Source of the DNA: an uncultured Gammaproteobacteria bacterium | Lineage (GTDB): Bacteria > Patescibacteriota > Microgenomatia > UBA10105 > UBA927 | DNA: 64,000 bases | Direction: 5' to 3' | NCBI GenBank assembly: GCA_964621305.1 | Contig: CAZUOM010000003.1 | Span: forward strand, 14,589-78,588 | Shown: positions 7,470 through 49,245 of the stretch, piece after piece | Position numbering within the stretch: position 1 is the first letter of the stretch | Layout of the letters: every line of letters starts with the position of its first letter | Program-made: the position numbers and the translations under genes | Notes under the pieces: generated by a model | Seen by the model: the letters and a program-made list of their open reading frames with translations, nothing else | Databases searched by the model: none | What the model was told of the DNA's origin: nothing

Positions 7470-9105
7470 GTCAACGAAAATATTGCTCGTTGCGATTGTC
7501 CTTCTCTCTTTTTTTCTTCGTTTTTACAAGGTAACAGAGAACCCGCCGTCTCTATCGTGGGATGAAGTGTCTATTGGTTACAACGCCTACAGCATCCTCA
7601 AAAGTGGCCGCGACGAGCACGGGAGATTTCTTCCGCTGGACACCTTTGTTGCCTACGGAGATTACAAGCCACCACTGTCAATCTATGCTACTGTACCATT
7701 TGTTGCACTACTGGGACTCAACGAACTTGCCGTACGATTACCCTCCGTTATCGCAGGAACACTAACAGTTTTCATAACGTTTTTTTTAGTAAAGGAACTT
7801 TTTCGTAATAAAAAAGATTTATTTGACATTTGGCATTGGTCATTTGGCATTCCAATAACAGCTTCGCTGTTGTTGGCCATCTCTCCCTGGCATATTCTTC
7901 TCTCACGTGCCGGTTTTGAAGCAAACATCGCATTATTTTTCGTCGTCGTCGGTGTGTATCTCGTTTTGCGCGCACGAGACGACCCAAGGCTCATTCATTT
8001 TTGTTGGTTGCCATTTGTTGCAGGGGTTTACACCTTCAACAGCACACGTTACTTCGTCCTTCTTATGGCGGCGGGACTGGTTGTTTTCTGCCGTCACCAA
8101 TTTCTCAAAAACAAACGACAACTAGTTACGGGAGCTCTAGTTGCATTAATAGCACTTCTTCCGATTGCACCGCACCTGGTTTCCAAAGAGTCACGTCTTC
8201 GTTTTGACGAAGTGAGCATTTTCAACGAGCTGGAGTTAATTTTGCGATCAAATGAGCGAGCGGCGGTAGACGGTAGTCCGTGGTGGGGGAGGATCCTACA
8301 CAACCGGAGAATTGGCTATATGCGAAGTTACCTTACCCACTTTTTTGATCATCTCGAGCCGCGGTTTTTGTTTATTGCCGGAGATGGCAATCCAAAGTTT
8401 TCCATCCAGGAGGTTGGCCAGCTCTATTGGGTGGAAGCACCTTTGCTTTTGGTTGGGATATTTTTGCTGTTTCGCTCCAACAAAGGTATAGCAACACTTC
8501 TTTTGTTTTGGCTGCTGGCAGCTATTGTGCCCGCAGCAGTTGCTCGGCAGACTCCGCATGCGCTGCGGATAGAGAATAGCTTGCCGACGTGGCAGATTAT
8601 AATAGCGTTTGCGATAATTTCAAATTTCAAATTTCAAATTTCAAATTGGAAGAAAAATTCAATGAGGATATTGATTATTGGAGCTTACCTATTTAACTTT
8701 TTGTACTTTTGGCACCATTATATGGCCCATTACCCGAAGGATTATTCCGGAGAATGGCAGTATGGATATCGGGAGGCCATCAGTTTTGTATCCGGAATAA
8801 AAGATCAATACGACACGATTGTTATTTCCGAAAGCATTGGCAGGCCCTACGCGTATGTCCTGTTTTACGAGCGGACTGACCCAAAAACATATTGGGATAC
8901 AAAGAACTCAACATTTGATGCTAGTGGATTTTATCTTGTTTTTGGCTTTGACAAGTATCGTTTCACCCGCGTCGGTGTGGAAGAAGGAAAATACAAAGGT
9001 CGAGTTTTGTATGTTCTTCCTCCACATGAAGTACCCGCTGACGCGCGCATACTTGCCAGTGTGAAGCGGTTGAACGGGGAACACGCACTTGTGGTATTTG
9101 ACTAA
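7462..9105 (+). CDS. GT39/PMT_2 (ArnT-like) membrane glycosyltransferase, paralog 2
   Basis: 547 aa. Shares the N-terminal motif and a 48-aa identical block (IAGTLTVFITFFLVKELFRNKKDLFDIWHWSFGIPITASLLLAISPWH) with 570..2216. C-terminal FTRVGVEEG region is family-like. Confidence 0.7.
   Translation: MTRSTKILLVAIVLLSFFLRFYKVTENPPSLSWDEVSIGYNAYSILKSGRDEHGRFLPLDTFVAYGDYKPPLSIYATVPFVALLGLNELAVRLPSVIAGTLTVFITFFLVKELFRNKKDLFDIWHWSFGIPITASLLLAISPWHILLSRAGFEANIALFFVVVGVYLVLRARDDPRLIHFCWLPFVAGVYTFNSTRYFVLLMAAGLVVFCRHQFLKNKRQLVTGALVALIALLPIAPHLVSKESRLRFDEVSIFNELELILRSNERAAVDGSPWWGRILHNRRIGYMRSYLTHFFDHLEPRFLFIAGDGNPKFSIQEVGQLYWVEAPLLLVGIFLLFRSNKGIATLLLFWLLAAIVPAAVARQTPHALRIENSLPTWQIIIAFAIISNFKFQISNWKKNSMRILIIGAYLFNFLYFWHHYMAHYPKDYSGEWQYGYREAISFVSGIKDQYDTIVISESIGRPYAYVLFYERTDPKTYWDTKNSTFDASGFYLVFGFDKYRFTRVGVEEGKYKGRVLYVLPPHEVPADARILASVKRLNGEHALVVFD
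7771..7890. repeat. 120-bp inverted repeat copy B (inside GT39 paralog 2, plus strand)
   Basis: See 1788..1907. The single mismatch is ccagggGgag versus ccagggAgag. Confidence 0.85.
8617..8644 (+). repeat. Heptanucleotide tandem repeat (atttcaa)x4 inside GT39 paralog 2 CDS
   Basis: Directly visible as atttcaaatttcaaatttcaaatttcaa, encoding ISNFKFQISN in a loop inserted relative to paralogs 1 and 4. Confidence 0.8.
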
Positions 9106-10788
9106 ATGAAAAATAGTAAACACATTCAGAAAGTTTTTATCGTGTGCATCGTGATCCTTGCAGCAAGTATCCGGCTGTGGCAGTTGGGGAAGGTGCCGCC
9201 TAGTCCGGATTGGGACGAGGCGGCGTTGGGGTACAATGCCTACTCTATTCTAAAAACTGGAAAGGATGAATACGGAACGTTTCTGCCACGCGTGCTTCGT
9301 TCGTTTGACGATTACAAGCCGCCTCTCTATGCGTACTTGGCAATTCCATCGGTTGCAGTCTTTGGCCTTACTGTTTGGTCAGTACGACTCCCATCGGCTA
9401 TTGTCGGTACGCTTGCGGTATTGGGCACGTTTTTTTTGGTGAGAGAACTGTTTTTTAATTTCTCATCTCGACACTCGAAACCCGACACTCGAAACCCGAC
9501 ACTCGCGCTGGTAAGCGCACTCTTGCTTGCCCTCTCTCCCTGGCATATCCAATTCTCCAGGATCGCATTTGAGGCAAACATTGCTATCGGCATCAACATA
9601 TGGGTCCTCTATTTATTCTTTAAGGGGTTACGCGATCGCGGGTGGCTTCTTGTTAGTGCACTGCTCTTTGGCCTTGGCCTCTATGCCTATCATAGCGAAC
9701 GGATCTTTTTACCTCTCTTGGCGTTAACCGTGGCTGTTCTTTATCGGCGTGAATTGTTTATACATCGACGGTCGGTTGCTGCCGCTGTTGTTGTGGGGGT
9801 TTTGGTGGTTGCGCCTCTTGCACCAGTTATCTTTGATCACACGTCTTTTATGCGTCTTAAAGGAACCGGTTCTCTTTCAGATAAAACAGGACTGCTTGCC
9901 AACAGTGCCCGTAAGTTACAGGAAGATCTGGCTAGTGGCGATCGGTTGGGTGCTTTGTTGGAAAATCGGCGCATCGTCTATGCAAAAAAACTTCTAGAGG
10001 GGTACTTGACGCACTACTCGTTTCGGTGGCTGTTTGTTACCGGAGATAACGATCGCCACCATGCGCCAGATAATGCGCTTTTGTACCTCGTGGAGCTCCC
10101 ATTTCTTCTTTTGGGCATGTACGTCGTGTTTATGAAGATAGGCGGTCGTCTTGGTAAACTTCTTGGGGTTTGGTTTCTGATTGCGCCCCTTGCTGCGTCA
10201 CCGACGACGGAAGTACCGCATGCAATTCGCTCCATCGTATTTCTTCCTATTTTTCAGATTTTTACGGCAGTAGGAATTATTGCTGCGATATCAAATATCA
10301 AATATCAAATATCAAATATACATATCAAATATCAAAAATTATTAGCGTACGGGGTCAGCGTGCTTACTATTTTATTTTTGATACTTAATATTTCATATTA
10401 TTTCCACATGTACTTCGGACACCAGAATGGCGAGTTTTCGAAGTTTTGGCAGTACGGTTATGAGCAGGCGGTCGCGTACGCCAAAGCGCATTACGAAGAG
10501 TATCAAAAAATCGTAGTATCGACCAAACTCGAGCAGCCGCACATGTTTTTCCTTTTCTTTCTGCCGTATGACCCGAAAAAGTACCTGGCAGAAGGTGGCA
10601 CCGCATCCGGAGGCTTTGCTGAGGCAAACAATAAGTTTGACAAATTTGAATTTCGGCCAATCCGGTGGGATAAAGAGGAACGCGACGGCACGACGCTTTA
10701 CATCGGAACGTTTAAAGAAATCCATGGAGACCTTCTTGCCGCAATATTTAACGTGGATGGAACGGAGGCTATCCGTATCGCCAAATGA
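9106..10788 (+). CDS. GT39/PMT_2 (ArnT-like) membrane glycosyltransferase, paralog 3
   Basis: 560 aa. N-terminal RLWQLGKVPPSPDWDEAALGYNAYSILKTGKDEYG plus YKPPLYAY, C-terminal FRPIRW. Start abuts the previous stop. Confidence 0.7.
   Translation: MKNSKHIQKVFIVCIVILAASIRLWQLGKVPPSPDWDEAALGYNAYSILKTGKDEYGTFLPRVLRSFDDYKPPLYAYLAIPSVAVFGLTVWSVRLPSAIVGTLAVLGTFFLVRELFFNFSSRHSKPDTRNPTLALVSALLLALSPWHIQFSRIAFEANIAIGINIWVLYLFFKGLRDRGWLLVSALLFGLGLYAYHSERIFLPLLALTVAVLYRRELFIHRRSVAAAVVVGVLVVAPLAPVIFDHTSFMRLKGTGSLSDKTGLLANSARKLQEDLASGDRLGALLENRRIVYAKKLLEGYLTHYSFRWLFVTGDNDRHHAPDNALLYLVELPFLLLGMYVVFMKIGGRLGKLLGVWFLIAPLAASPTTEVPHAIRSIVFLPIFQIFTAVGIIAAISNIKYQISNIHIKYQKLLAYGVSVLTILFLILNISYYFHMYFGHQNGEFSKFWQYGYEQAVAYAKAHYEEYQKIVVSTKLEQPHMFFLFFLPYDPKKYLAEGGTASGGFAEANNKFDKFEFRPIRWDKEERDGTTLYIGTFKEIHGDLLAAIFNVDGTEAIRIAK
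9469..9505 (+). repeat. 14-bp tandem repeat (cgacactcgaaacc) x2.6 inside GT39 paralog 3 CDS
   Basis: cgacactcgaaacc cgacactcgaaacc cgacactcg, encoding HSKPDTRNPTL. Contains the same acactcga core as the heptamer array at 15764. Confidence 0.75.
10288..10336 (+). repeat. Heptanucleotide tandem repeat (atatcaa), 4 perfect plus 3 degenerate units, inside GT39 paralog 3 CDS
   Basis: atatcaa x4, then atataca, tatcaaa, tatcaaa. Encodes ISNIKYQISNIHIKYQ at the position equivalent to the repeat in paralog 2. Confidence 0.8.
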
Positions 10789-13837: not shown

Positions 13838-15480
13838 AAAAACTTATTTGGGTTGTTTTGTTTTTGCTGACCTTGGTGCCCATCCTGAATCTTGCGCATC
13901 CAGGCCTGCCCCTCACACATGACGGTCAGGATCACGTGGCTCGGATTGCCAACTTTTACCAGTCAATTTTGGAGGGCAACGCAATCCCGCGTTGGGCGGG
14001 GAATCTCAATTGGGGATACGGACACCCGATTTTGATGTTTCTTTATCCGTTTCCTTCCTACGTTGCCTCGTTTTTTCATTGGATTGGATTTTCTTTGGTT
14101 GACGCGACTAAGTTGGTTTTTGGATTGAGTTTTGTTGCGAGCGTGTTGGCGATGTACCTGTGGTTATCGTGCTGGTATGGTAGAGCTCCCGCGTTTGTTG
14201 GCGCCGCCCTCTATGGTTTTGCACCCTACCGGTTTGTTGATCTCTCTGTGCGTGGGGCGATAGGCGAGCATGTAGCATTCGTTTTTCCGCCGCTCATTTG
14301 TTGGGGATTGCACCTGTTGGCCCGCAGAGAACGACCCTTTCGCTCAGCCCTTCTTGTATCTTTGGGAACCGCGGGATTGCTTCTTTCCCATAACGCATTA
14401 AGCGTGATGTTTCTGCCGTTCGTTGTTCTCTACTTCGTCTACCTCGGTTTCTTTGGAGCAAAGAACCGTCTGCAGTTTTTTATGCTTGGTTCTTGGTACT
14501 TAGTTCTTGGCTTTTTGCTCGCTGCATTTTTTTGGGCTCCTGCTTTTTTTGAGGGCAAATATACCCTGCGAGATATTGTCACCAAAGGTGAGTACGCCAC
14601 TCGCTTTGTTTCTTGGCAGTGGTTTCTTTCTTCAACTTGGAATTATGGTGGGGGCGATGAGTTTAGCAAAGAACTAGGGCTTCTTCAGTGGTTGGGTGTG
14701 GTTGGGTCAGTACTCGTTTTTTTCAAAACAAAAGAGAAAAAATTTCGTGTCGCAATAGTAAGCTTGCTGACTCTGTTTTTCTTCTTGCTGTTTCTTATGA
14801 CAAGTTATGCAAGGGTCATCTGGGATAGCATCACCATTCTCCAGAAATTTCAGTTCCCCTGGCGGCTTTTGAGTGTTTCTGTTTTTCTTTCTTCCATATT
14901 GGGGACAATCGTAATCTCCAAACTACCAAAACAATTCGCTTTATTTACGTGCTTTTTTGTTCCATTGACGTTATTGGTTACGACCAACACTATGTGGGGT
15001 CCGAAAGACTATCTTGTAAAACCTGAATCGTTTTACACGGGGGTCTACCCTGGTACTACCGATACCGGCGAAAGCAGCCCCATCTGGTCAGTGCGGTTTA
15101 TGGAACAAGAAGCGAAAGCACCCTACGAGGTCATCGAAGGCGAGGCAGCAATTGCCCAGATCTCTCGCAGTACGACTAAGCACGTCTTTTCTGTCGATGC
15201 AAAAAAGAAATCCAGAATTGTTGATAATACACTCTACTTTCCCGGATGGACAGTGCTAGTCGACGGGAAAACGCTACCTCCATTGGACATCTGGTTCCAG
15301 GACCCCCAGTATCGGGGACTTATTAACTTTTGGCTAGAGAAGGGGAAGCACACGGTTACACTCGAATTTCGGGAAACGAAACTGCGCCGTTTTGCAGATA
15401 GCGTAAGCGTATTCGGGTTGCTCCTCCTCGTTGGGACTGTTACCATTGGGAAACCTTGGGTATGGCTAAAATCTCGGTAG
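13834..15480 (+). CDS. YfhO-like short-type polytopic membrane protein
   Basis: 548 aa. LTHDGQDHVARIANFYQ..PRWAGNLNWGYGHPILMFLYPFPSY and C-terminal YFPGWTVLVDGK, paralog of 4546..6150. Confidence 0.65.
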   Translation: MKKLIWVVLFLLTLVPILNLAHPGLPLTHDGQDHVARIANFYQSILEGNAIPRWAGNLNWGYGHPILMFLYPFPSYVASFFHWIGFSLVDATKLVFGLSFVASVLAMYLWLSCWYGRAPAFVGAALYGFAPYRFVDLSVRGAIGEHVAFVFPPLICWGLHLLARRERPFRSALLVSLGTAGLLLSHNALSVMFLPFVVLYFVYLGFFGAKNRLQFFMLGSWYLVLGFLLAAFFWAPAFFEGKYTLRDIVTKGEYATRFVSWQWFLSSTWNYGGGDEFSKELGLLQWLGVVGSVLVFFKTKEKKFRVAIVSLLTLFFFLLFLMTSYARVIWDSITILQKFQFPWRLLSVSVFLSSILGTIVISKLPKQFALFTCFFVPLTLLVTTNTMWGPKDYLVKPESFYTGVYPGTTDTGESSPIWSVRFMEQEAKAPYEVIEGEAAIAQISRSTTKHVFSVDAKKKSRIVDNTLYFPGWTVLVDGKTLPPLDIWFQDPQYRGLINFWLEKGKHTVTLEFRETKLRRFADSVSVFGLLLLVGTVTIGKPWVWLKSR

Positions 15481-16241
15481 CAATCGCTACATACAACGAA
15501 GAGCAAAATATACGAGCGTGTTTGGATTCGGTACGCTCTTGGGTAGATGAGATCGTTGTGGTTGATGGTGAGTCGACGGATAAAACCGTGGAGATTGCAA
15601 AACGATATAAAGCGAAAGTCATCGCTAGCGATAATCCACCGATTTTTCATATTAATAAACAAAAAGCCGTTGACACATGCACTGGGGACTGGATTTTTCA
15701 ACTCGACGCCGACGAAGTCGTGACTCTAGAGCTTGCAAATGAAATTCAAGAAATTGTTTCTAACACTCGACACTCGACACTCGACACTCGACGCAACGGT
15801 CATTATGTTCCACGTAAAAACTTTTTTCTCGGCCACTGGCTGAGAAAGGGCGGGCAGTATCCTGACTACGTCATACGTTTATTTCGGCGGGGGAAGGGAA
15901 AATTTCCGAGTAAAAGCGTGCATGAACAAATCGAAATTGACGGCAATGTCGGTTATCTTAAAAATCCATTATTACATTACACATCTAGAACACTCGGCGA
16001 TTACTGGAAAAAGGCACGTGCCTATACTTCGTTGGAGGCCCAGGAGTTTAAACAAAGCGAGCTTGCTTTGAATATTTTTACATACGTTGAGTACAATCTA
16101 TTGAAACCGACCATGACATTACTCAGTCTATTTCTGCGCCACAAAGGATTCCTCGATGGTATCTACGGCTTTCTCTTTTCCCTCTTTTCCGCTCTTCATC
16201 ATCCAATCGCATTTTGGAAAAACGCAACGATGCAAAAATAA
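15456..16241 (+). CDS. GT2 family glycosyltransferase
   Basis: ISVAIATYNEEQNIRACLDSV...VVVDGESTDKT...QLDADE, a typical GT-A (family 2) N-terminal domain with a DxD-like motif. Confidence 0.75.
   Translation: MGMAKISVAIATYNEEQNIRACLDSVRSWVDEIVVVDGESTDKTVEIAKRYKAKVIASDNPPIFHINKQKAVDTCTGDWIFQLDADEVVTLELANEIQEIVSNTRHSTLDTRRNGHYVPRKNFFLGHWLRKGGQYPDYVIRLFRRGKGKFPSKSVHEQIEIDGNVGYLKNPLLHYTSRTLGDYWKKARAYTSLEAQEFKQSELALNIFTYVEYNLLKPTMTLLSLFLRHKGFLDGIYGFLFSLFSALHHPIAFWKNATMQK
15764..15791 (+). repeat. Heptanucleotide tandem repeat (cactcga)x4 inside GT2 CDS
   Basis: cactcgacactcgacactcgacactcga, encoding TRHSTLDTR. Confidence 0.8.
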
Positions 16242-17931: not shown

Positions 17932-19549
17932 GTGGCTTCTGGTGGCATTATTGCCCGCGATATTTGCCGCGCGGGCCCTACTTGCGCCGGGATTCATTCC
18001 TACTCACGACGGAGAATATCACCTTATCCGTTTCCACGAATTTGAAACCATGCTCAAAAGTGGTTCGCTGTTTCCCCGTTGGGCGCCGAATCTTAACAGC
18101 GGGTATGGCGTGCCGCTGTTTAACTTCCACTACCCGTTTCCAAACTACTTCGGTTCACTCTTTCACTTTTTAGGGGCGAGTTTGGCTGATTCGGTAAAAC
18201 TTGTCCTTGTCACGGGTTACTTGACTGCGGTGGCTTTTTGTTTCCTTTGGCTGTCGGCGCTGTTTAAGAGGAGGGTAGCAGCCATTGGTACGATTGTGTT
18301 TTCGCTCGTTCCCTACTGGTTTGTTGATCTCTATGTTCGTGGCGTTGTCGGGGAAGTTTTAGCACTTGCTTGGGTGATGCTTGCCTTTGCATGTATCGAA
18401 CGCGGGTGGAAAGTAGGCGTTGCAGTTTCTATCGGGCTCCTTATCGCTAGTCACAATATCATGGCAATTTTATTTCTTCCAATATTATTTTTGTATCTGA
18501 TCGCGCGTCGTCGGTCTGCGATTGTCGCATTCTTTGTCGGCATTGGGCTTGCATCTTATTTTTGGATTCCTGCGCTTTTGGAGCGGGACTACGTTGTTGG
18601 ACTTAATTCTGTCAATTTCCGTGACCATTTTCCGGCTCTGACCCAGACCCTTTTTCCCTCCTGGGGGACCGGTTTTTCTCAACCAGGGCAAAACGCAGAC
18701 GAAATGTCGTTTCAGATCGGTGTCGTACCGTTAATGGTGTTGTTTGCGTCTTTGATTTTGTTTCTAAAGCATATGAAAAACGTACTGGCTTTATTTTTTC
18801 TTTTTATTTGCGGAGTTGGGTTTTTATTGATGCAGGAAACATCGCTTTGGATATGGGAATTTTTGTCGTTTTTGCAATACGTTCAATATCCCTGGCGGCT
18901 GTTATCTGTCTTTCTGCCGGGAGCGGCGTACCTCACAGGGTATCTGGTTATGAAGAAAGGCTTGTTCGTCGGAGCAACACTCGTGCTGGTTGCGGTTGTG
19001 GTGACAGTTCCCTACATCCGACCTGTTACCTACGAGCCGCGTTCAGACGTTTACTACCTCTCCCGGCCGAATTTTACCGACGGCACATCGTCTCTCGGGA
19101 ATACGTTTTCTACTCGATGGAGCCAGTGGAAGGGCAAAAGACCGAGAAACAAAGTTGAAGTTGTCAATGGAGAAGCTAGAGCAACCATATTGACAACTTC
19201 ATCCATCCGCTATAAGTTTTTACTTCAGGCGAAATCTGAAAGTCGCATCCGTGTTAACACACTGTATTACCCTGGCTGGAAGGTGTGGGTCGATGGTGAG
19301 CTCGTGCCGATTGACTACCAAAATGATGGGACCATCACCTTCCCCATCACTGTCGGAGAAAATAAGGTAACGGTTAGTTTCGCAGAGACACCTTTGCGAA
19401 AAGCCGCGGATGTTCTTTCATTGGCGAGTTTGTTATGGCTGATTTTTTCGGTTATACTCGATATTAATGCGCGTCGCCATCGACATCTCCCCACTTTCAA
19501 GCAACCACAAGGTTCGTGGTACCGGATTTTATACAAGAAATTTAATTGA
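17897..19549 (+). CDS. YfhO-like short-type polytopic membrane protein
   Basis: 550 aa. PTHDGEYHLIRFHEFETMLKSGSLFPRWAPNLNSGYGVPLFNFHYPFPNY and C-terminal YYPGWKVWVDGE. Confidence 0.65.
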   Translation: MLSGRGLKNMFKWLLVALLPAIFAARALLAPGFIPTHDGEYHLIRFHEFETMLKSGSLFPRWAPNLNSGYGVPLFNFHYPFPNYFGSLFHFLGASLADSVKLVLVTGYLTAVAFCFLWLSALFKRRVAAIGTIVFSLVPYWFVDLYVRGVVGEVLALAWVMLAFACIERGWKVGVAVSIGLLIASHNIMAILFLPILFLYLIARRRSAIVAFFVGIGLASYFWIPALLERDYVVGLNSVNFRDHFPALTQTLFPSWGTGFSQPGQNADEMSFQIGVVPLMVLFASLILFLKHMKNVLALFFLFICGVGFLLMQETSLWIWEFLSFLQYVQYPWRLLSVFLPGAAYLTGYLVMKKGLFVGATLVLVAVVVTVPYIRPVTYEPRSDVYYLSRPNFTDGTSSLGNTFSTRWSQWKGKRPRNKVEVVNGEARATILTTSSIRYKFLLQAKSESRIRVNTLYYPGWKVWVDGELVPIDYQNDGTITFPITVGENKVTVSFAETPLRKAADVLSLASLLWLIFSVILDINARRHRHLPTFKQPQGSWYRILYKKFN

Positions 19550-29599: not shown

Positions 29600-29929
29600 C
29601 TAAAATTTGACTTTAACATTAATTATAAAAATCGCCCACATGAGTAAATATAACAGAGTGCCAAGATTTTCGGCTATATCGTGTCTGGAAAAAAGAACGG
29701 CAAGGATTGAGAGGAAGAGAAAAAAAATGGCAATAACCAAATAAGCCCTGGTTCTAAATTTGAGGATAATGGTTGCAAGAATTATCATGATAAAAATCTT
29801 ATTCCTAGTCGTAAAGACAAGGCTTGAGTAGGGAAGAATAGACAAAAGGTCCACAACGAAATAGCTCAAGGTAAAAGCAAGTAATTTCCCGCTGTTTTGA
29901 CTGATAAACTCTTTAATCTTCTGCCACAT
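29600..29929 (-). CDS. Small membrane protein (GtrA-like?)
   Basis: 109 aa, 3-4 hydrophobic segments. Start overlaps the stop of the upstream large membrane protein. Family uncertain. Confidence 0.3.
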   Translation of the reverse strand: MWQKIKEFISQNSGKLLAFTLSYFVVDLLSILPYSSLVFTTRNKIFIMIILATIILKFRTRAYLVIAIFFLFLSILAVLFSRHDIAENLGTLLYLLMWAIFIINVKVKF

Positions 29930-33368: not shown

Positions 33369-33408
33369 AATTACTTCTTAACGAATAATTAACCCCTACA
33401 ATAATTTT

Positions 33409-36317: not shown

Positions 36318-36336
36318 AAAATAACTGCCTCAAATA

Positions 36337-37359: not shown

Positions 37360-37428
37360 AACTTTCTAGTATTGTATACCGATAAGATGAAGCATTAAAG
37401 CTTTCTAGACATAAAGTTTTTCGTCATT

Positions 37429-38112: not shown

Positions 38113-38777
38113 TTCTTACCCTTCACCGCACGAACAACGCAATATAAAGACAAATCGACCGGAAGTAAATAAGGAAACCAAATGGTCTTGTCAATAACGA
38201 CATTCTTTTTAATCGCACCGATAATTTGCCTATGGCTTGAAGGATGTATCTCGTCTGGAGTAAAGCCCAATACGTTTTTAATAATAAAATCGGTAAGTAG
38301 ATTTTTTGCGGGAAAACCCATTATTAAATAACCGTCGGGTTTCAAAATACGATACATTTCGCCAATAGCAACGCTCAACTCTTTCTTGGTGAAATGTTCA
38401 AGAACGCTCATGCAAACAATAGTATCAAAATAATTTTTCCGGTAAGGAGTTCTAAAAATCGACCCTGTAACTAACTTGGCTTTTATATTTTGTTTTTTAA
38501 GTATCTCTTCCACAGTTCTTGGATTGGGCAGGGTATCAATACCATGGATTTGAATGCCAAGCTTTACAAGTGTTGGTATAAAAGTTCCTCCTCCGTAACC
38601 CACATCAAGAATCTTCTCCACCTTGCGGCGCTTCATCAAAGAAATGGCCATCTCCAGACGTTTTCTCATAAAGTAGCCTTGTATAGGTCGATAGTACTGA
38701 TCAATAGTACTATCGATATAATCATAGTTGAGGTTCTTCAAATTCTCCTTTGGGGGTATAACCAATTTGACTTTCAT
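38109..38777 (-). CDS. Class I SAM-dependent methyltransferase
   Basis: Motif I KILDVGYGGGTF and post-I LVKLGIQIHGID; downstream VLEHF. Typical methyltransferase type 11/12. Confidence 0.7.
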   Translation of the reverse strand: MKVKLVIPPKENLKNLNYDYIDSTIDQYYRPIQGYFMRKRLEMAISLMKRRKVEKILDVGYGGGTFIPTLVKLGIQIHGIDTLPNPRTVEEILKKQNIKAKLVTGSIFRTPYRKNYFDTIVCMSVLEHFTKKELSVAIGEMYRILKPDGYLIMGFPAKNLLTDFIIKNVLGFTPDEIHPSSHRQIIGAIKKNVVIDKTIWFPYLLPVDLSLYCVVRAVKGKK

Positions 38778-41317
38778 AGAGACAATTGCGGCACTAGTTT
38801 AATCAGAAAGACATCAATATTCAGCGGTAATTCTCCAAATTCTAGAGAAATTTCGGTCAGATACTTATCAAACATCTGCCCTGAGGCTGCGAATATTTCT
38901 CCTTCGGGAATCTTTACTCTCACCTCTTGTGGTTGCAATTGTACCTTAAACCGAAAGTACAGCTCCTGCGAGTTTTGTTTCGGGCTATCTTTGTTCGTGT
39001 TCCAGCGAAGTTTTGCCCAAAAAGTATCCAGACCAGCCTTTTTTGCATAAGCAAAATCATCATAAGAAGCCATAAAAGAGAATGTGTCTAAGAAATCTTT
39101 TAAAAGCTGGTCGCGGCTGATGTACAAATTTAATACCGCCCTGGCTCCATCAGTAATAACCTCAAACTCATCGAGGAGGGCGAAGTTTCCGGTCTGGGTT
39201 GTATGGAGATCCATTTTTATATATCGAGCCCTGATTGGCCCATCTAGTATATCAAGCCTGCTATCTTTTTTATTATTTGAAATCTCCAAAACCTTTTCCC
39301 AATTAATTCCATCCAAAGAGGCCGAGTAGGTATAGGTTGAAGGAGTTCTGCCCACACCCGGTTGCGAACCCCAGGCCAATGCTGCCACATTTAGCTCTCT
39401 ACCTAAGTCGACCTTTATCCAAGCGGGTACTGCGTCAACAATCCAAGAGGATCTTTCGCCAACGTTCCCATCTATTAAGTTTTCCGGTAAAACATGTAAA
39501 AAGGGTTCTCCCGGTCTTTGAGACAAAGTATTTGCTGTGTTCACTTTCGCGGTTTTCAAATACCTGGCGCGGTCAATTGAATAATCCACTAAAGCCCTAA
39601 ACTTTTTACTGTCCGGTCGAGATCCCTGCTTAAAAATGCCAAAACTGGAACTCATATTTATTTCTGCTAAGTAGGGAGTTTCGACAAATGGGACACCATC
39701 AGTTTTCGCAATATAGGTACTCCTGTCGCTTTCGGCCGGCTCGAGGAAATATGTCCCCTGCTTAGCCAGTACGGTTCTTGCTTCTTTTGTCCTGTTAATA
39801 ATGCCCTCGTTGCTGTTATAATCTAGAAAGATAACGCTAGACAAATCGAGCTTGCCTTCTTTTACCTTCTTTAAGACTGCTGCGATTTGAGATTCAATTC
39901 GATAAGGCTCATCTGCCAGGTTTGGGTATTGTTTGTCTTTCACAAAGGACCACTCATATAAGAAATCATTTAAACCTGAAGCGTGAGGGTAGATGTAAAA
40001 AACTACACCATCCGGCAGTGACGGAAACTCCTTTGAAAATTGAGAATTAAATCTCTTTGGCTCCGAATACGTTGACAGGTAAGCTTCGGATTGAATTTTA
40101 TGAAGATGATAAAGTTGCACTCCCAAATAAAAAGTGACTGCTGTGGCGAGTATTTTATGGGTTCCAATTTTTGCCGCTTTCTTTTGAAGTTTTTTAGACA
40201 AAAAGATCAGAAAGTATGCCAAAAGGACAGAGGTGCCTGCAAACGCAAAGTAGCCATAGCGCATCGTGATGAATTTATAATCTCGTGACAGAAATTCTTC
40301 CGTGTAAGGTATTGCCATCGCCACAAATGTAATAAAGCAAGCAACCCAACCGGTAAACAATAGGGGAAGACAAATATCTTTCTTCTTTTTACGCAGTAAA
40401 TAAAGAGCGTAGCTTAATAAAGAAATTGTCACCCACCCTATAAATGGAAAGAAGTACTTGTTAAGAAAGTTTGCATTCACAAATGTTTTTAAACTCTCTC
40501 TAACATCATTGAGAATTGGATAGGGAACTGCTTGTGGTGATATGAGCTTCCCAATCGTTAACAAAATAGACTTGAAATACACAAAGTACAATCCGTCTGC
40601 GATGAGCTTTACGCGCATTTTAACGTTGCTGTCAGCAAAGTCTCCGGGTATGCCTCCGTACCAGGATCGAATCATAAGAAACGCAAAGACAGAAAGATAG
40701 AAGGGAAACTGTCTTATGACAATTTTGTAAAGTACTTTCTTAGAAAAAGCGTCTTTGGTATTAATAAAGTCATAAAGAGTGATAATTGCTACAATTACTA
40801 AACCCGTTTCCCTGGTGAAAAAGGCCAAGAAAGAAAAAAACATAGACAACAATAGGTTCCACGAGCTTCCATTCTTTCTGTAATCTATAAATTTAATTAG
40901 TGCCAAGGACATAAAAATCAAAAGGAGCGGGTAATAGGAATTAAAACTACCCCAGGTAAGAACGTCGTTGTAGGCAGTGTTTGCAACGAAAATAAGACTT
41001 GAAATAAAAGATAGTTGTCTATTTTTTGTTAGGATTTCCACGAGCCTAAAGAGAGTCAAGGCTGCGACAATGTGTAGGACTAAGCTAGTCAGGTACCAGC
41101 CGCTGGGATTCCAGCCGAAAATTTTCCAATCCAAATAATATAAAAAACTGTGGCTCTTAATGAGATTTACAAGAGTATGCGGAGTTGACCCCATCAGCCA
41201 AGATGTTTCAAAACCTTTAAGAAACCAAAAATCCAGAGTCCGATGCCAAGCAATCAAACCGGTAAGTATAATGGCTATCGGGTATATAAATGGAGAGTTA
41301 AAAATTCTTTTTAACAT
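38774..41317 (-). CDS. Polytopic membrane protein (putative GT-C glycosyltransferase) with C-terminal F5/8 type C (discoidin) carbohydrate-binding domain
   Basis: 847 aa. N-terminal about 400 aa is multi-TM. Residues 612-720 read LIDGNVGERSSWIVDAVPAWIKVDLGRELNVAALAWGSQPGVGRTPSTYTYSASLDGINWEKVL...YIKMDL, matching the discoidin DGN..T.W....QWI.VDLG....I..V.L.W pattern. Confidence 0.7.
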   Translation of the reverse strand: MLKRIFNSPFIYPIAIILTGLIAWHRTLDFWFLKGFETSWLMGSTPHTLVNLIKSHSFLYYLDWKIFGWNPSGWYLTSLVLHIVAALTLFRLVEILTKNRQLSFISSLIFVANTAYNDVLTWGSFNSYYPLLLIFMSLALIKFIDYRKNGSSWNLLLSMFFSFLAFFTRETGLVIVAIITLYDFINTKDAFSKKVLYKIVIRQFPFYLSVFAFLMIRSWYGGIPGDFADSNVKMRVKLIADGLYFVYFKSILLTIGKLISPQAVPYPILNDVRESLKTFVNANFLNKYFFPFIGWVTISLLSYALYLLRKKKKDICLPLLFTGWVACFITFVAMAIPYTEEFLSRDYKFITMRYGYFAFAGTSVLLAYFLIFLSKKLQKKAAKIGTHKILATAVTFYLGVQLYHLHKIQSEAYLSTYSEPKRFNSQFSKEFPSLPDGVVFYIYPHASGLNDFLYEWSFVKDKQYPNLADEPYRIESQIAAVLKKVKEGKLDLSSVIFLDYNSNEGIINRTKEARTVLAKQGTYFLEPAESDRSTYIAKTDGVPFVETPYLAEINMSSSFGIFKQGSRPDSKKFRALVDYSIDRARYLKTAKVNTANTLSQRPGEPFLHVLPENLIDGNVGERSSWIVDAVPAWIKVDLGRELNVAALAWGSQPGVGRTPSTYTYSASLDGINWEKVLEISNNKKDSRLDILDGPIRARYIKMDLHTTQTGNFALLDEFEVITDGARAVLNLYISRDQLLKDFLDTFSFMASYDDFAYAKKAGLDTFWAKLRWNTNKDSPKQNSQELYFRFKVQLQPQEVRVKIPEGEIFAASGQMFDKYLTEISLEFGELPLNIDVFLIKLVPQLSL

Positions 41318-41430
41318 AATAGATCGATAAAAACATCGATGATTTTTTGGATTTCCCTGCCGGTCAATTCCGGATTATTTCCAATATACAACCCCTGTCC
41401 GCGAACAAGTCTTGCATCGGGAACCTTGTC

Positions 41431-42216
41431 TTAAACTTTTTGCATCACGACGTGGTAGGCGGAAGCAAATCTTTCGTCTTGATCCAAACGGTCTAATAAA
41501 AACCCCATACAATTCATCAAGAAAAATATTAAAGGGGACACTAAAAGCAAAACAATTTTTGTCATGGCCCTTCCTTCGAGTATTTTTCTTACTATATATT
41601 GATTTACAAGTATAGCCAGCGTTGTCCCAAAAAATGAATAAGTGTAAATTCTTTTCACTTTTAATCCGGATTTTCTTGCCAACTGCCGGTAGCCGCCCCT
41701 GGTTATTCTTTGGAAATCGCTGTCGATACCGCCATGCTCCCGATAAATAAACGGAGAAACGGTTAAACACCTTCCGCCTTTTTTAAGAACTCTGGCAGCC
41801 TCGCGGAAAAATTTTTGAATATCAGAGATATGTTCCGCCACTTCAAAGCTTGCGTAAGTATCAAAGGTTTTATCTTTAAAGGGCAGCGTGAGGGCATCAC
41901 AAACTAGGTCTATTTTTTGAGGGTCCTTAGTTCTCCCGTATAGTATCTCGGTGATGACTCCAAATTTATGCGCCTCCTCCTTTTGTGTCTTAAATTGCTT
42001 ATCCCACGAAGATGAGTCTGTTGCTATATATTCTCTAACCCGCTTGTTCCTAGCTAATATTCTTTCTTTTTTCTCACAATTTCCAGCCCCCGTTTCCAAA
42101 ACTTTTCCCTTAAAATATTTAATCAGTTCATTATTTCCCTTCTCCTTGTTCCTAAAATCAAGCCAGTGAGGATAAAAAGGGGTCGCGACAAAAGTGGTAA
42201 GTAGCGCTCTTATCAT
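41431..42216 (-). CDS. Class I SAM-dependent methyltransferase
   Basis: GKVLETGAGNCE (motif I), acidic motif II, GGRCLTV. 261 aa. Confidence 0.6.
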   Translation of the reverse strand: MIRALLTTFVATPFYPHWLDFRNKEKGNNELIKYFKGKVLETGAGNCEKKERILARNKRVREYIATDSSSWDKQFKTQKEEAHKFGVITEILYGRTKDPQKIDLVCDALTLPFKDKTFDTYASFEVAEHISDIQKFFREAARVLKKGGRCLTVSPFIYREHGGIDSDFQRITRGGYRQLARKSGLKVKRIYTYSFFGTTLAILVNQYIVRKILEGRAMTKIVLLLVSPLIFFLMNCMGFLLDRLDQDERFASAYHVVMQKV

Positions 42217-42218
42217 TG

Positions 42219-43391
42219 TTATACACCTAGCGTTTTTCCCAGTGCCTCTGCAAAAATTTTATTCCAATCGAAGTTGACAGCGTATTGTACTGCGTTGGCC
42301 GAATAGCTGTCTAATTTAGACCTGTTTCCTAATAACTCTTCTATTTTCCGGGCTACTGAATCTACGTTGTATCTGGCTATTAATCCGCACCTCTTCTTGG
42401 CTAATTGTTTAGCTATTGGCGGTACGTCTGTCAAAATTACAGGGAGGCCTGCGGCAAGATAGCTTTTTATTTTTCCGGGGTCTGTAAAATAGGTAAAACT
42501 GTCTGGCGCGGGTTCATAAGTAGCTACCGAAAGAGTACTTTTTGCCAACTCCTCCTCAATTTTTTTATGGTTTTTGATAAAACCAAGAAAGGAAACCTGA
42601 TTTTGTAAATTGTTTTTTTTAACTCTTCTCCTGAGATCTTGTTCATAAGGACCGGTGCCGATAGCATAAAGGTGTACTCCCGGAAATTTTTTAGAAACCT
42701 TAGTAATTGCATCGATAACGACTTGAAGCCCTTGTTTTTTTATGAGGTGGCCCAAAAAGACAATTCGATCTTTTTCTTTTTGGACTTTCCGATGCCTTTG
42801 GGTTCTCTTAAGCCAGATACCAACCGGCACTACTATGTTAGTTGCGAGTCTATCTCTTTTCAGTTCGTGTTTTATTCTTGCTTCTACGATTTTTTCCGAA
42901 AGATTCCACACCATATCAGCCTTCTTTGCACATTGCGAATCAAAAAAATGATAAAGTTTGTTCAAAAAGCTATTGGTAAACCTTTTAGGGACGTAATCGA
43001 TGGTGTAGAAAACTACTTTTTTAGCTCTTCCCAGTCGTTTCAGAAATAGGCCAAGGTATGCAAGAAGGCCATCTGAACCAATATATAAGTCAACTTTATC
43101 TGTTTTTCCCAATACCCACAGCACGGTAGAGACGGCCTCTTTTAAGTATGTAAATACCCCAGGGAGTTTCAGATTAAGCCCATGGTGCTCTCTAAGTAAT
43201 TTTCCCTGCTTATAGGTTCGATAAAAAGATGGCTTCCCTTCCATGATGGAAAACGGGTGGCCAATAAAAAGAAGGCTGCCTGTTTTGTTTTTTAAATACT
43301 CCTCTAGATCAAGAGCCGGACCACTTGCAGAGACGTGAGAAGAGATTACTACGTCAAGACCCTTTAGGGTTCTTTTTAAATCTTCATTCAT
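42219..43391 (-). CDS. GT4 (group 1) glycosyltransferase
   Basis: 390 aa, GT-B-like. C-terminal domain RIVFLGHLIKKQGLQVVIDA...GTGPYEQDL...FIKNH. First gene of the minus-strand AT-rich operon. Confidence 0.7.
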   Translation of the reverse strand: MNEDLKRTLKGLDVVISSHVSASGPALDLEEYLKNKTGSLLFIGHPFSIMEGKPSFYRTYKQGKLLREHHGLNLKLPGVFTYLKEAVSTVLWVLGKTDKVDLYIGSDGLLAYLGLFLKRLGRAKKVVFYTIDYVPKRFTNSFLNKLYHFFDSQCAKKADMVWNLSEKIVEARIKHELKRDRLATNIVVPVGIWLKRTQRHRKVQKEKDRIVFLGHLIKKQGLQVVIDAITKVSKKFPGVHLYAIGTGPYEQDLRRRVKKNNLQNQVSFLGFIKNHKKIEEELAKSTLSVATYEPAPDSFTYFTDPGKIKSYLAAGLPVILTDVPPIAKQLAKKRCGLIARYNVDSVARKIEELLGNRSKLDSYSANAVQYAVNFDWNKIFAEALGKTLGV

Positions 43392-43633
43392 ACCAATCTA
43401 TTCTTTCTTGACAGATAACCACATCCGCACCCCTCGTAACTTTTAAATTATATCACAGCTTCCTGTATGTCACCCTGTTAGAAGTTCTGGCAAGGTATTC
43501 CTGATTTTGAAATGAGTTCCAGGAAAAGAGGGCTTCCCCCAGTTGTGGTTAAAATGCTAGGATATACTTTGGGTAAGATATTAGTTTTAAAACTGGCTCA
43601 TGGAATGTTTGTTTTGCAACGCCAATTACACGC
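43392..43633. promoter_or_regulatory. Divergent intergenic region (242 bp) likely holding promoters for the minus-strand island operon and the plus-strand downstream genes
   Basis: Largest non-coding gap in the window and the only divergent gene pair junction here. Contains a TTGACA hexamer at 43411; no confident -10 assigned. Confidence 0.3.
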
Positions 43634-46530: not shown

Positions 46531-46584
46531 TAGCAGCTAGTAGATAGTAGCTAGCAGCTAGGAGTTTTTCTAACTACTAACTAC
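46531..46584. repeat. Intergenic TAG-rich heptamer microsatellite (tagcagc/tagtaga/tagtagc/tagcagc/taggag) followed by (taactac)x2
   Basis: ttagcagctagtagatagtagctagcagctaggag ... ctaactactaactac between the small ORF 46304..46525 and galE. Has stop codons in all forward frames. Confidence 0.7.
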
Positions 46585-46589: not shown

Positions 46590-47567
46590 ATGAAAATTTT
46601 AATCACCGGCGGGGCTGGCTATATTGGTTCAATTACCAATTGGTTGCTTCGGAAACAGGGCATTGAGACAGTTATCTTTGACAATCTTTCGTGTGGACAC
46701 AAAGAGGCGGTTGGTGACACTCCGTTGGTTGTTGGTGATTTGACAAAAAAAACTGACGTTTCCGCACTTTTCCAACAGTATAAGTTCGACGCTGTCGTCC
46801 ACTTTGCAGCTTTAGCTCTAGCCGGTGAGTCTATGGAGCGCCCGGCTGACTATTATTACAACAACATTGTCGGAGGAATAAATCTTTTAGAGGCAATGAA
46901 CGCTCACAATTGTAAATACATCGTTTTTTCCTCTACCTGTGCTGTATACGGCACACCAAAAGAACTTCCCGTGACTGAAGGAGCTCCAATTCATCCAGAG
47001 AGTGTGTACGCCTCCAGCAAAAGGATTTTTGAGGAAATTTTGGCTTGGTACGCTTTGTTGAAAGACATTCGATTTACAAATCTTCGCTACTTTAACGCTG
47101 CCGGTGCTCTTTTAGACGGTAGCCTAGGAGAAGATCACCGTCCAGAAACCCACATCATCCCCATCGCGCTTTCCGTAGCGGCAGGTAAGCGTAGCATCTT
47201 TGAATTCAATGGTGATGATTATGATACGCCCGATGGAACCTGTATCCGCGACTACATTCACACCACGGATTTAGCCCACGCCCACATAAAAGCGCTTGAG
47301 TACATTACGAAGGGTGGATCATCAGACTCATTTAATCTCGGAGTAGGGAAGGGTTATAGCAATAGAGAGGTGATTCAGATGGTTGAGCAGGTGGTCGGCC
47401 GCGAGATTCCCAAGAAAGTGGTTGGCAGGCGACCCGGAGACCCAGCTACCATTTGGGCAGACAACACCAAAGTCAAAAAAGTCCTAGGCTGGGAGCCGAA
47501 ATACTCCGATCTTAAAACTATTGTCGAGAGCGCATGGAAATGGGAAAAGAATAAATTTAAAATTTAA
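46590..47567 (+). CDS. galE: UDP-glucose 4-epimerase
   Basis: MKILITGGAGYIGS, YASSKRIFEEIL (YxxxK), NLRYFNAAGA, DGTCIRDYIHTTDLAHAH, matching GalE-family blocks. Confidence 0.85.
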   Translation: MKILITGGAGYIGSITNWLLRKQGIETVIFDNLSCGHKEAVGDTPLVVGDLTKKTDVSALFQQYKFDAVVHFAALALAGESMERPADYYYNNIVGGINLLEAMNAHNCKYIVFSSTCAVYGTPKELPVTEGAPIHPESVYASSKRIFEEILAWYALLKDIRFTNLRYFNAAGALLDGSLGEDHRPETHIIPIALSVAAGKRSIFEFNGDDYDTPDGTCIRDYIHTTDLAHAHIKALEYITKGGSSDSFNLGVGKGYSNREVIQMVEQVVGREIPKKVVGRRPGDPATIWADNTKVKKVLGWEPKYSDLKTIVESAWKWEKNKFKI

Positions 47568-47577
47568 AATTGAAAAT
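47553..47577 (+). repeat. Heptanucleotide repeat (aaattta/aaattga) about x3.5 spanning the galE stop and the next gene start
   Basis: aaattta aaattta aaattga aaatg, covering the KNKFKI* C-terminus and the TTG/ATG start of 47570. Confidence 0.65.
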
Positions 47578-48124
47578 GCGCATAGGTATAGATATTAGTC
47601 AGATTGCTCATGAGGGGACTGGAGTGGCTACATACGTGAGAGAGATGGTAAAAGCGCTTCTTGGGCAAGATAAAAAGAATGAGTACGTGCTATTTGGCGC
47701 GTCTCTACGGAAACTGCACGTTTTTTTCGAATACTTCCAAACTGTTAACACCTTGAGTAAAAAAATTCGATTAGTCGTTGTTCCCTTTCCACCGACACTT
47801 CTTGAAATTATTTGGAATCGACTCCATGTGCTGCCAATTGAATGGTTTGTAGGAAACATTGACGTTTTTTGGAGCAGCGACTGGGCGCAGCCTCCGCTAA
47901 CATCTGCAAAAGGCATAACGACCATTCACGACCTTATTGCCGTCAGGTTTCCCCGCGAGACTGATCGTAGGATTGTTGCTGCGCATACGCGACGATTGGC
48001 GCATGTTGCAAAAGAATGTCAGGCGATTTTATGCGACAGCCAAGCAACGAAAAAAGATACCGCGACGTTATTAAACGTACCTACTGATCGACTTCATGTG
48101 GTATACCCAGGAGTCAATGTATGA
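47570..48124 (+). CDS. GT4 N-terminal-domain-only ORF (184 aa); possible truncated duplicate or pseudogene fragment
   Basis: MKMRIGIDISQIAHEGTGVATY...HDLIAVRFP...VVYPGVNV* stops where GT4 enzymes begin their C-terminal catalytic domain. A full-length GT4 follows immediately with ATGA overlap. TTG start per ORF track; ATG at 47576 also possible. Confidence 0.45.
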   Translation: MKMRIGIDISQIAHEGTGVATYVREMVKALLGQDKKNEYVLFGASLRKLHVFFEYFQTVNTLSKKIRLVVVPFPPTLLEIIWNRLHVLPIEWFVGNIDVFWSSDWAQPPLTSAKGITTIHDLIAVRFPRETDRRIVAAHTRRLAHVAKECQAILCDSQATKKDTATLLNVPTDRLHVVYPGVNV

Positions 48125-49245
48125 TGATAGCAATTGACGGTTATGAGGCAAACGATGTCCATCGAGTAGGAATTGGACGCTACGCCTATGAAATCTTAAA
48201 AAATATTCATCTTTTACGCTCAAGGCACGAATTTCGTATCTATCTTCCCGACCAGCGTCTTGCCGATATGCCCCAGGAGACCGATTGGTGGCGATATCGG
48301 GTACTTTCGCCGAAGCGACTTTGGACATTCTTTCGCCTGCCGCTTGCGTTGAGTGTTGATTTGCCTCGGGCTGATGTCGTGTTTTCTCCGACACATTACG
48401 TTCCTCGGTTTGTTGGCACACCGCGGGTTATGGCCATTATGGACCTTTCTTTTGCGGTTTACCCGGAGATGTTTAGACGCAAAGATCTCCATCAATTGGT
48501 TCACTGGACTAGATATTCAGCCCGTCAGGCAAAGAAAATCCTTACAATCAGCCAGTTTAGCAAGAATGCTATAATTAAGGAGTACGGAAAGAAGCCGGAA
48601 GATGTGGTGGTGACATACCCGGGATTAACAATTAAAAATTCAAAATTCAAAATGCAAAATTATAAGAGTAAATACAGCATCACAAACCCCTATATCCTTT
48701 CAGTAGGCACGTTGCAGCCTAGAAAGAATTTCGTGAGACTTATTGAGGCGTTTTCAAAATTGTTGCCAAAATATCCTCATTTTGAACTTGTTATTGTGGG
48801 TAAAAAAGGTTGGCTGTATGAGGAGATTTTGGATGCTCCGAAGAAGTACGGAGTTATTGGCAGAGTAAAGTTTTTAGATTTCGTTATAGACGAAGATCTT
48901 CCAGCTCTTTATCAGGGTGCGAAGTGCTTTGTTTTGCCTAGTTTATACGAAGGATTTGGCTTGCCGGTTTTGGAGGCAATGGCGCTCGGAACGCCCGTCG
49001 TGGTAAGCAATAGTTCAAGTTTGCCGGAAGTAGCAGGAAAAGCCGGGATTTATGTTGATCCGCTCAATACTGACAGTATAGGCCGCGGCATTGATCAAGT
49101 TTTACAGGAAGAGGGAAAAGCAGTCGGCAAGAATCGAATTGACTTAGGAAAAAAGCAAGCCGGACAATTTACGTGGGAGGCGGCAGCCAAGCAGACCCTG
49201 GAAGTGTTAGAAGGCCTCGCCTTGCGAGGCAAGGCGAGACCTTGA
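48121..49245 (+). CDS. GT4 (group 1) glycosyltransferase
   Basis: MMIAIDGYEAN...VVVTYPGL...ILSVGTLQPRKN...LPSLYEGFGLPVLEAMALGTPVVVSNSSSLPEVAG. Confidence 0.8.
   Translation: MMIAIDGYEANDVHRVGIGRYAYEILKNIHLLRSRHEFRIYLPDQRLADMPQETDWWRYRVLSPKRLWTFFRLPLALSVDLPRADVVFSPTHYVPRFVGTPRVMAIMDLSFAVYPEMFRRKDLHQLVHWTRYSARQAKKILTISQFSKNAIIKEYGKKPEDVVVTYPGLTIKNSKFKMQNYKSKYSITNPYILSVGTLQPRKNFVRLIEAFSKLLPKYPHFELVIVGKKGWLYEEILDAPKKYGVIGRVKFLDFVIDEDLPALYQGAKCFVLPSLYEGFGLPVLEAMALGTPVVVSNSSSLPEVAGKAGIYVDPLNTDSIGRGIDQVLQEEGKAVGKNRIDLGKKQAGQFTWEAAAKQTLEVLEGLALRGKARP
48633..48661 (+). repeat. Heptanucleotide tandem repeat (caaaatt)x3-4 inside GT4 CDS
   Basis: taaaaatt caaaatt caaaatg caaaatt, encoding IKNSKFKMQNYK. 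Confidence 0.75.

Follow-up and report, generated by a model that had tools for sequence, protein, structure and literature searches.

The window analysed here is a 64,000-nucleotide stretch of contig CAZUOM010000003.1 (assembly GCA_964621305.1, positions 14,589 to 78,588 of the forward strand), deposited as an uncultured Gammaproteobacteria bacterium and placed by GTDB within the Patescibacteriota. This 64-kb window is largely a glycan-synthesis cluster, and glycosyltransferase genes make up about half of its sequence. It contains five main tandem arrays with a 7-bp unit, which an earlier reading of the DNA alone (the original prediction) had proposed to be slipped-strand switches that vary the surface glycans of the cell. 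Here we describe these arrays, compare them with those of related genes and weigh that proposal against other explanations.

Heptanucleotide arrays in glycosyltransferase genes

To describe the arrays, we used Tandem Repeats Finder and an exact scan of the window, and we assigned host genes to families by Pfam. The hosts are two PMT_2/GT39-like genes (7462-9105 and 9106-10788, hereafter GT39a and GT39b), one Glycos_transf_2 gene (15456-16241, GT2) and two Glycos_transf_1/GT4 genes (19467-20543 and 48121-49245, GT4a and GT4b). The repeat scans and Pfam matches bear out the original prediction that each of the five arrays lies within a glycosyltransferase coding sequence (CDS) and is in frame:

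8616-8647, plus strand: 7-bp array AATTTCA x4.6, 100% matches, in GT39a (CDS 7462-9105)
10288-10336, plus strand: 7-bp array ATATCAA x7.1, in GT39b (CDS 9106-10788), peptide ISNIKYQISNIHIKYQK
15763-15792, plus strand: 7-bp array ACACTCG x4.3, 100% matches, in GT2 (CDS 15456-16241), peptide NTRHSTLDTRR
20051-20084, plus strand: 7-bp array AAAACTC x4.9, in GT4a (CDS 19467-20543), peptide RNLKTQNSKLKT
48624-48662, plus strand: degenerate AATTCAA-type 7-bp array x5.6, 84% matches, in the interdomain linker of GT4b (CDS 48121-49245)

The 8616 array encodes IISNFKFQISNW and occupies the loop that follows the helix ..WQIIIAFA of GT39a, a site that we call hot spot 2. The 10288 array is perfect for 4.6 units (10288-10319) and degenerate in its remainder, and the GT4a array, which is perfect within 20055-20084, lies in a loop between ..LEAF and KLVFVG. 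Perfect tracts hold 4.3-4.9 units, or 30-34 nt. That all five main arrays sit in glycosyltransferase genes is weak evidence for an association, because such genes fill so much of the window, and no enrichment in these genes was demonstrable.

Among the periods scanned, only 7 bp was enriched in the window. Perfect arrays of at least 21 nt numbered four at period 7 and none at periods 4-6 and 8-12, and 200 dinucleotide shuffles of the window gave a mean of 0.0 period-7 arrays of this length. Likewise, there were four perfect arrays of at least three copies at period 7 and none at periods 5, 6 and 8-15; with up to two mismatches allowed, we found five arrays at period 7 and none at every other period from 4 to 15. 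Seven unselected related loci held seven period-7 arrays and one of any other period, and the units found in related loci L001-L007 and L129 were diverse (ACTTATC, TGGAATT, ACTCGCT, AGCGTCA, GTGTCAA and AATATCA). These results show the features of heptanucleotide long simple sequence repeats (SSRs): arrays longer than composition predicts, an excess of period 7, and occurrence at many loci with varied units.

Stop codons constrain the units

Changing the unit number by one or two in either direction causes each of the five proteins to end 1-32 codons past its array. The original prediction was therefore correct that gain or loss of one 7-bp unit frameshifts each gene, with truncation shortly after the array in every case. 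Since 7 leaves a remainder of 1 on division by 3, a heptamer array encodes one and the same cyclic seven-residue peptide in each reading frame, and consequently an intragenic array is tolerated only if its unit is stop-free in every phase. By enumeration, 42 of 128 heptamer necklaces with six A/T positions are stop-free. A run of A after T needs a C in between, which results in the TCAAA look of the units and in peptides rich in K, Q, S and N.

This stop-codon filter explains much of the family resemblance of the units, but not all of it. The four A/T-rich units have a mean rotation distance of 1.5, compared to 2.68 for stop-free, A/T-rich, A-rich heptamers (P about 0.003). The suggestion that the units are near-variants of one another thus stands insofar as their likeness exceeds expectation, but part of that likeness is forced by the avoidance of stop codons. 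As proof of a common functional family, we rejected unit likeness in part: the stop-codon rule forces the TCAAA look, and a residual excess remains.

Orthologs carry arrays at matching loop sites

GT39b has its nearest non-self match at 64% identity and is the sole member of its 90% cluster; the nearest proteins carry the names Candidatus Gottesmanbacteria or Patescibacteria. By exact look-up, the GT39b protein occurred in no other contig, and a search of genome contigs gave one locus only, 60% identical. The DNA comparison was made with six orthologs that are 60-64% identical. All six have a degenerate array at the matching loop site and of matching total length, including the irregular 3' part (ATACATATCAAATATCAAAAA). 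Orthologs at 56-64% identity have arrays at matching loop sites and of nearly equal length, mostly decayed by substitution. In the GT39b ortholog of L007, the array is GTGTCAA x4, a concerted change of several units that includes a synonymous change of AAA to AAG. Homologs that do not have the motif have an equally long loop, often of unrelated sequence, and hence the GT39b array is not an insertion.

Conservation within the GT39b array is seen in codons more than in residues. At positions where the residue is the same, the codon is identical in 78% of ortholog pairs within the array compared to 39% in the rest of the gene, whereas residue identity between orthologs is 48% in the array and 63% elsewhere. 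Array codons are not the favoured ones, TCA being 16% of Ser codons and ATA 17% of Ile codons. High codon identity, low residue identity and unfavoured codons together imply that periodicity is kept at the DNA level and not by selection on the peptide, as would be expected of continuing homogenisation within the array.

Exact differences of seven residues (three units) between homologs occur at three places (homolog P0005, the GT39a ortholog of L006, and GT4a compared with L104), which is the pattern that survivors of in-frame slippage should leave. These length steps and the concerted unit changes in L007 support the earlier proposal insofar as slipped-strand or recombinational turnover has acted on the arrays. 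In addition, GT39a arrays are 74-88% like the resident GT39b array but 64-74% like their own orthologs, whereas GT39b arrays most resemble those of their own orthologs. At most, this hints that the GT39a and GT39b arrays within a genome evolve in concert.

The loop that holds the GT4a array ranges widely in length among 50 homologs, several of which have array-like peptides there. At the matching site, the GT4a ortholog L128 has a degenerate CTCAGAA array of equal length and the ortholog L129 a perfect AATATCA x4.4. In both GT39b and GT4a, orthologs carry in-frame repeats as conserved loop-coding sequence, an outcome that the original prediction had itself named as speaking against a switch. 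Its further claim, that the encoded peptides are loop insertions absent from paralogs, does not hold generally: GT4a alone shows a clean gain of seven residues, relative to one homolog (L104). We rejected pure loop insertion for GT39b, GT2 and GT4b: the GT39b loop is of equal length without the motif, the GT2 array stands in place of a longer loop of the L007 ortholog, and the GT4b array adds no length to the linker.

Two observations concern the GT4 gene models. The NCBI database copy of the GT4a product has 312 aa (P0136), whereas the open reading frame (ORF) counted from its first ATG, which is also where the alignment of homologs begins, has 358 aa. Upstream of GT4b and overlapping its start, ORF 47570-48124 (184 aa) encodes a GT4 N-terminal domain alone, 22% identical to the N-domain of GT4b. 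Its product terminates with ...VVYPGVNV* precisely at the interdomain linker, which in the following gene, GT4b, holds the array.

Structural context of the GT39b array

The AlphaFold model of GT39b (predicted local distance difference test (pLDDT) 87.6, predicted template modelling score (pTM) 0.89) has a GT-C fold, and Foldseek matched it to AglB, STT3, ArnT, PglB and Pmt4 with probability 1.00. The PMT_2 match has an E value of 1e-10, and D37 and E38, the N-terminal D-E motif, are invariant in 54 homologs. By PMT_2 match, D-E motif and multi-helix membrane fold, the 8616 and 10288 arrays are hosted by glycosyltransferases of the GT-C fold. The 10288 array is modelled as the end of a helix (373-404), a three-residue turn and the start of a second helix (408-443), with pLDDT about 92. 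By analogy with ArnT, in which the C-terminal domain is periplasmic, this segment would face the cytoplasm.

Such confident modelling as helix end, turn and helix start would be expected if the seven-residue peptides (ISNIKYQ, ISNFKFQ, KTQNSKL) were themselves structurally selected, for example as the end of an amphipathic helix that has Ile in heptad positions a and d, or as a strand-turn-strand, and if the DNA periodicity were secondary. Consistent with this, arrays recur at matching ortholog sites, and an array in leucyl-tRNA synthetase (LeuRS), described below, fills the native segment between SEG and TTRPDT with a peptide in which hydrophobic and polar residues alternate (IKFQI..FKFQI). 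However, selection on the peptide is difficult to reconcile with residue identity that falls and codon identity that rises within the GT39b array, with the use of rare codons, with the many homologs that have unrelated sequence of equal length at the site, and with units at one site that are wholly different between genomes. We therefore consider a peptide-level motif improbable.

A second site of recurrent arrays in the GT39 family

A further group of arrays, which the repeat scan found and the original prediction had overlooked (9469-9505, 7821-7851 and 1827-1857), lies at another site, hot spot 1. Together with a long identical tract that covers this site, the features are:

9469-9505, plus strand: 14-nt array x2.6 of alternating heptamers CGACACT and CGAAACC, in the GT39b loop at aa 117-135 (hot spot 1)
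7821-7851, plus strand: degenerate heptamer array ATTTGGC x4.4, 79% matches, at hot spot 1 of GT39a
1827-1857, minus strand: degenerate heptamer array, as at 7821, at the matching residue position of an inverted PMT-like paralog (CDS 570-2216, minus strand)
7771-7883, plus strand: 113-nt tract, 100% identical to the reverse complement of 1795-1907, covering hot spot 1 of GT39a
1795-1907, minus strand: partner arm of the 113-nt identical tract, in the inverted PMT-like paralog

Hot spot 1 is a length-variable loop at about aa 117-135, before the conserved LLLAISPWH. The aligned segment ranges from 35 to 77 residues, a difference of up to 42 aa within the GT39 family, and in the GT39b model it is a low-confidence loop (pLDDT 57). 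Unrelated units recur at this site: ACTTATC in two paralogs of L001, TGGAATT in L002 and ACTCGCT in L007, and, in the window, the 14-mer array and degenerate TTTGGCA arrays. The inverted paralogs that share the 113-nt tract are otherwise only 37% identical in protein, and the tract is probably the product of recent gene conversion.

Some of the related loci deserve comment. L001 (CAYSOR010000001.1), titled 'uncultured Gammaproteobacteria', has a GT39 gene 60% identical to that of the window and two heptamer arrays; its label or binning looks doubtful. The Logan contigs L002 and L007 both end (positions 1-30) inside perfect heptamer arrays at hot spot 1. We considered these contig ends as a sign of polymorphism and rejected this, as paralogs with a shared array would be expected to break a k=31 graph anyway.

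Arrays stay in frame and occur in housekeeping genes

The original prediction proposed the arrays as candidate slipped-strand switches of glycosyltransferases that would provide combinatorial variation of surface glycans. As a rival explanation, they would be contingency loci, with switching under selection in an episymbiotic Patescibacteria cell. Several of the observations above are as expected for such switches: the units are 7 nt long and lie in CDS, a change of one or two units truncates each enzyme, five or more arrays occur in a single glycan cluster, and arrays that are perfect here are decayed in orthologs. There is also a proven precedent, neuO, which acts on a surface polysaccharide and has a unit one base from AAAACTC (PMC13001214).

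Switching by slippage predicts OFF alleles among relatives. We ranked database proteins by the N-terminal 394 aa of GT39b alone, which puts truncated proteins on an equal footing with full-length ones. The 119 nearest GT39b homologs were all 474-579 aa long, and none ended at the array.

We also scanned metagenome contigs for (ATWTCAA)3, which gave at least 120 loci, ranging in GC content between 0.16 and 0.67. The window and 127 loci (L001-L127, which include the matches listed; 128 sequences in total) contained 170 perfect 7-bp arrays with three or more units. Across these sequences, 52 arrays had other units. Where at least 100 codons were open on both sides, arrays in this set were in frame in 48 cases and frameshift-like in none. 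Lowering the threshold to 50 codons gave, among the same matches, 69 in-frame and 4 frameshift-like arrays; we regard the four or five frameshift-like cases at 40-50 codons as compatible with adjacent genes by chance. Array length in this set had an apparent ceiling of about 34 nt, which after correction for the rotation bias of the search pattern looked like a decaying distribution with few long arrays.

The genes that host in-frame arrays among the matches listed include housekeeping genes. Only 4 of 47 host ORFs match glycosyltransferases (two GT4 and two GT2), whereas seven match class I tRNA-synthetase families, and further hosts match NAD-dependent DNA ligase, the MiaA family, TsaD, TrmD, undecaprenyl-diphosphate synthase, the EPSP-synthase/MurA family and LpxB domains. 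In four LeuRS orthologs that are 50-59% identical (L008, L014, L081 and L051), an ATWTCAA array replaces the native segment between SEG and TTRPDT. Switching off such housekeeping genes would presumably be lethal and, because an on/off switch in LeuRS and similar genes is not credible, the arrays as a class are not switches. The LeuRS of L008 also has a NUDIX domain match at residues 394-511.

Taken together, the arrays have the non-triplet unit within CDS that is typical of contingency loci, but among relatives we found neither ON and OFF alleles side by side nor an association with surface genes. The absence of any OFF allele (0 of 119 homologs; 48 in-frame to 0 frameshift-like arrays among the matches listed), the conserved length of the arrays in orthologs, the presence of identical units in housekeeping genes and the lack of demonstrable enrichment in glycosyltransferases all argue against evolved on/off switches with combinatorial glycan variation, as may a length of 4-5 units when neuO has 3-53 (and is OFF in 66% of genomes). 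We therefore consider contingency loci an unlikely explanation. A literature search for SSR phase variation in Patescibacteria found no reports.

RNA structure and promoter-like signals

Arrays in a long operon might instead act in cis at the nucleotide level, whether by promoting antisense transcription, by binding a protein or RNA, or by serving as an uptake signal. Synonymous sites are conserved within the array, and the best sigma-70-like match in the 7.4-21 kb region is antisense: it lies at 8596-8623 on the minus strand, matches 11 of 12 positions and has its -35 element TTGAAA inside the 8616 array, with TATAAT 16 nt off. Promoter-like matches were, however, no commoner than in shuffles (17 compared to 16.6), and when the arrays were folded their RNAs were unstructured (z +0.3 to +1.3), the stable fold being confined to a flanking hairpin. 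Moreover, units differ between arrays, and between genomes at a matching site, and the host genes and genomes are very diverse. These results make a cis-acting element highly improbable.

The flanking hairpin, the sole stable fold near the arrays, is a perfect 8-bp stem (GGAATGCTT GAA GCATTCC) at 20031-20049, immediately 5' of the GT4a array. With z = -2.97, the 74-nt stretch that contains it codes for the conserved motif GMLEAF; on the minus strand it is flagged as terminator-like.

Comparison with known heptamer repeats

The closest proven switch is neuO, an O-acetyltransferase gene of the Escherichia coli K1 prophage CUS-3, which has AAGACTC repeats in its CDS, with 3-53 units (20 being commonest) and 66% of genomes OFF (PMC13001214). 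Like the window arrays, neuO has a 7-nt unit in CDS, with all frames open through the tract and full length reached only at a fitting unit number, and the target is a surface polysaccharide (PMC13001214). Its unit, AAGACTC, is one base off the GT4a unit AAAACTC, and the heptads are alike, KTQDSRL in neuO (our translation) and KTQNSKL in GT4a. Unlike neuO, in which the array is at the 5' end of the gene and mixed populations are measurable, the window arrays have 4-5 units, lie in mid-gene loops and have a length that is conserved in orthologs, with no OFF allele found.

Heptanucleotide repeats are reported to be the most abundant class of long SSRs in most bacterial genomes (Mrazek et al. 2007, as relayed in PMC4679880 and PMC4692102). 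As summarised there, the proposed cause is that the polymerase holds about 7 nt of DNA, a length that would favour slippage, and non-multiple-of-three units are reported to be disfavoured in coding regions. The long SSRs described by Mrazek, Guo and Shah, as presented in the same summaries, have units of 5-11 nt, mostly heptanucleotide, and occur in bacteria that are not host-adapted; the window arrays resemble them in their period-7 excess, short perfect arrays and occurrence at many loci and in many lineages. The cases cited there (Xanthomonas GGGAATC and Nostoc GGGGAYT) are mostly intergenic, whereas the arrays described here are in frame within genes, at loop sites shared by orthologs.

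Heptamer direct repeats such as TAACTGA are found in Beggiatoaceae, cyanobacteria and some Bacteroidetes, and short tandemly repeated heptamers occur in Calothrix. They resemble the window arrays in having heptamer units, with 2-6 copies per set, many sets per genome and frequent contig breaks. In contrast to the diverse units described here, they are mainly intergenic, just upstream of start codons, with one dominant unit per genome, and TAACTGA has stop codons in the forward orientation, whereas the window units are stop-free.

The contingency loci of lipooligosaccharide glycosyltransferases in Haemophilus, Neisseria, Campylobacter and Pasteurella also have repeats in CDS, in which a change of unit number shifts the frame. 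These loci of host-adapted pathogens have mono- to pentanucleotide units, long tracts, variation from strain to strain and frequent OFF alleles. None of these signatures was found in the window arrays, in comparisons with relatives of at most 64% identity. The window arrays belong to the known class of heptanucleotide long SSRs; less familiar is their in-frame persistence within genes, at loops shared by orthologs and paralogs, in Patescibacteria.

Proposed origin and persistence of the arrays

Our preferred interpretation, which we regard as fairly likely, is that the arrays are heptanucleotide microsatellites which permissive loops tolerate and which slippage and gene conversion keep homogeneous. 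Very probably, slipped-strand change of unit number has shaped them; both the generating processes (slippage and gene conversion) and the absence of a regulatory role are inferred. Arrays would arise by slipped-strand mispairing, and renewed slippage, together with short-patch gene conversion among paralogs, would maintain their homogeneity. Within genes, an array would survive only with a unit free of stops and an overall length that preserves the frame, such that visible changes would come in steps of three units, or 7 aa. Survivors would gather in permissive loops of variable length, namely the two GT-C loops, the GT2 loop, and the linker and first C-domain loop of GT4 proteins, where they would serve as ordinary loop, helix-end or hairpin sequence. 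Occasionally, single-unit slippage would create null alleles, as a by-product and not as a selected switch.

Several points weigh against this interpretation of the arrays as tolerated microsatellites. The units resemble one another more closely than constraints of stop codons and composition would predict (P about 0.003), and CGACACT, which is ACACTCG rotated, is found in arrays of both GT2 and GT39b (hot spot 1), unrelated genes that are separated by 6.3 kb. Independent slippage leaves this unexplained, which points to a further factor, such as exchange between arrays or a sequence preference. Four arrays of this genome are perfect when most orthologous ones have decayed; perfect arrays mean recent turnover, which fits selection for mutability as well as it fits a high local slippage rate. 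The evidence also has a defined reach: the metagenome sample was picked by the single unit ATWTCAA and covers the matches listed; assemblies give majority alleles, such that minority OFF variants are invisible to our counts; and comparisons extend to relatives of at most 64% identity.

Given these points, there is a slim chance that the recently renewed perfect tracts of 4-5 units, in at least four glycan genes, act as low-rate contingency switches that diversify the surface of the episymbiont. The sharing of units between unrelated sites and genomes, beyond what the constraints demand, likewise leaves room for an active process that spreads arrays. If the tracts were switches, they would provide the first example of SSR phase variation from the Patescibacteria radiation; contingency-locus biology would then reach from host-adapted pathogens to the candidate phyla radiation and offer a handle on surface variation of episymbionts.

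If the arrays are instead tolerated microsatellites, non-triplet repeats can persist for a long time inside genes, including housekeeping genes, provided that the unit is stop-free and the length keeps the frame. Such arrays would allow loops to change in length and sequence in steps of seven residues and would provide a substrate for gene conversion between paralogs, which is of relevance to the evolution of the variable GT-C and GT4 loops in Patescibacteria. In annotation, phase variation should not be the default reading of a 7-bp repeat found in a glycosyltransferase gene.

Other features of the window

A low-GC block at 29900-43400 has a GC content of 0.35-0.40, compared to 0.45-0.50 elsewhere, and may have been acquired horizontally. 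Its genes, on the minus strand, include GT4, GT2, methyltransferase and F5/8-type-C genes, together with large ORFs of 1151 and 551 aa that have no Pfam match; the window scan found no perfect or near-perfect 7-bp array in this block. Degenerate heptamer repeats also occur away from the main arrays, as TAGCAGC x4.4 at 46531-46561, which is intergenic, and as AAATTTA x3.6 at 47553-47577, across the stop of ORF 46590-47567 and the start region of the next ORF. ORF 53816-55213 contains two repeats, the 16-nt repeat ATTTGTTTATTTACTT x2.7 at 54438-54480 (96% matches) and a degenerate heptamer, TTATCAC x3.6, at 54852-54876.

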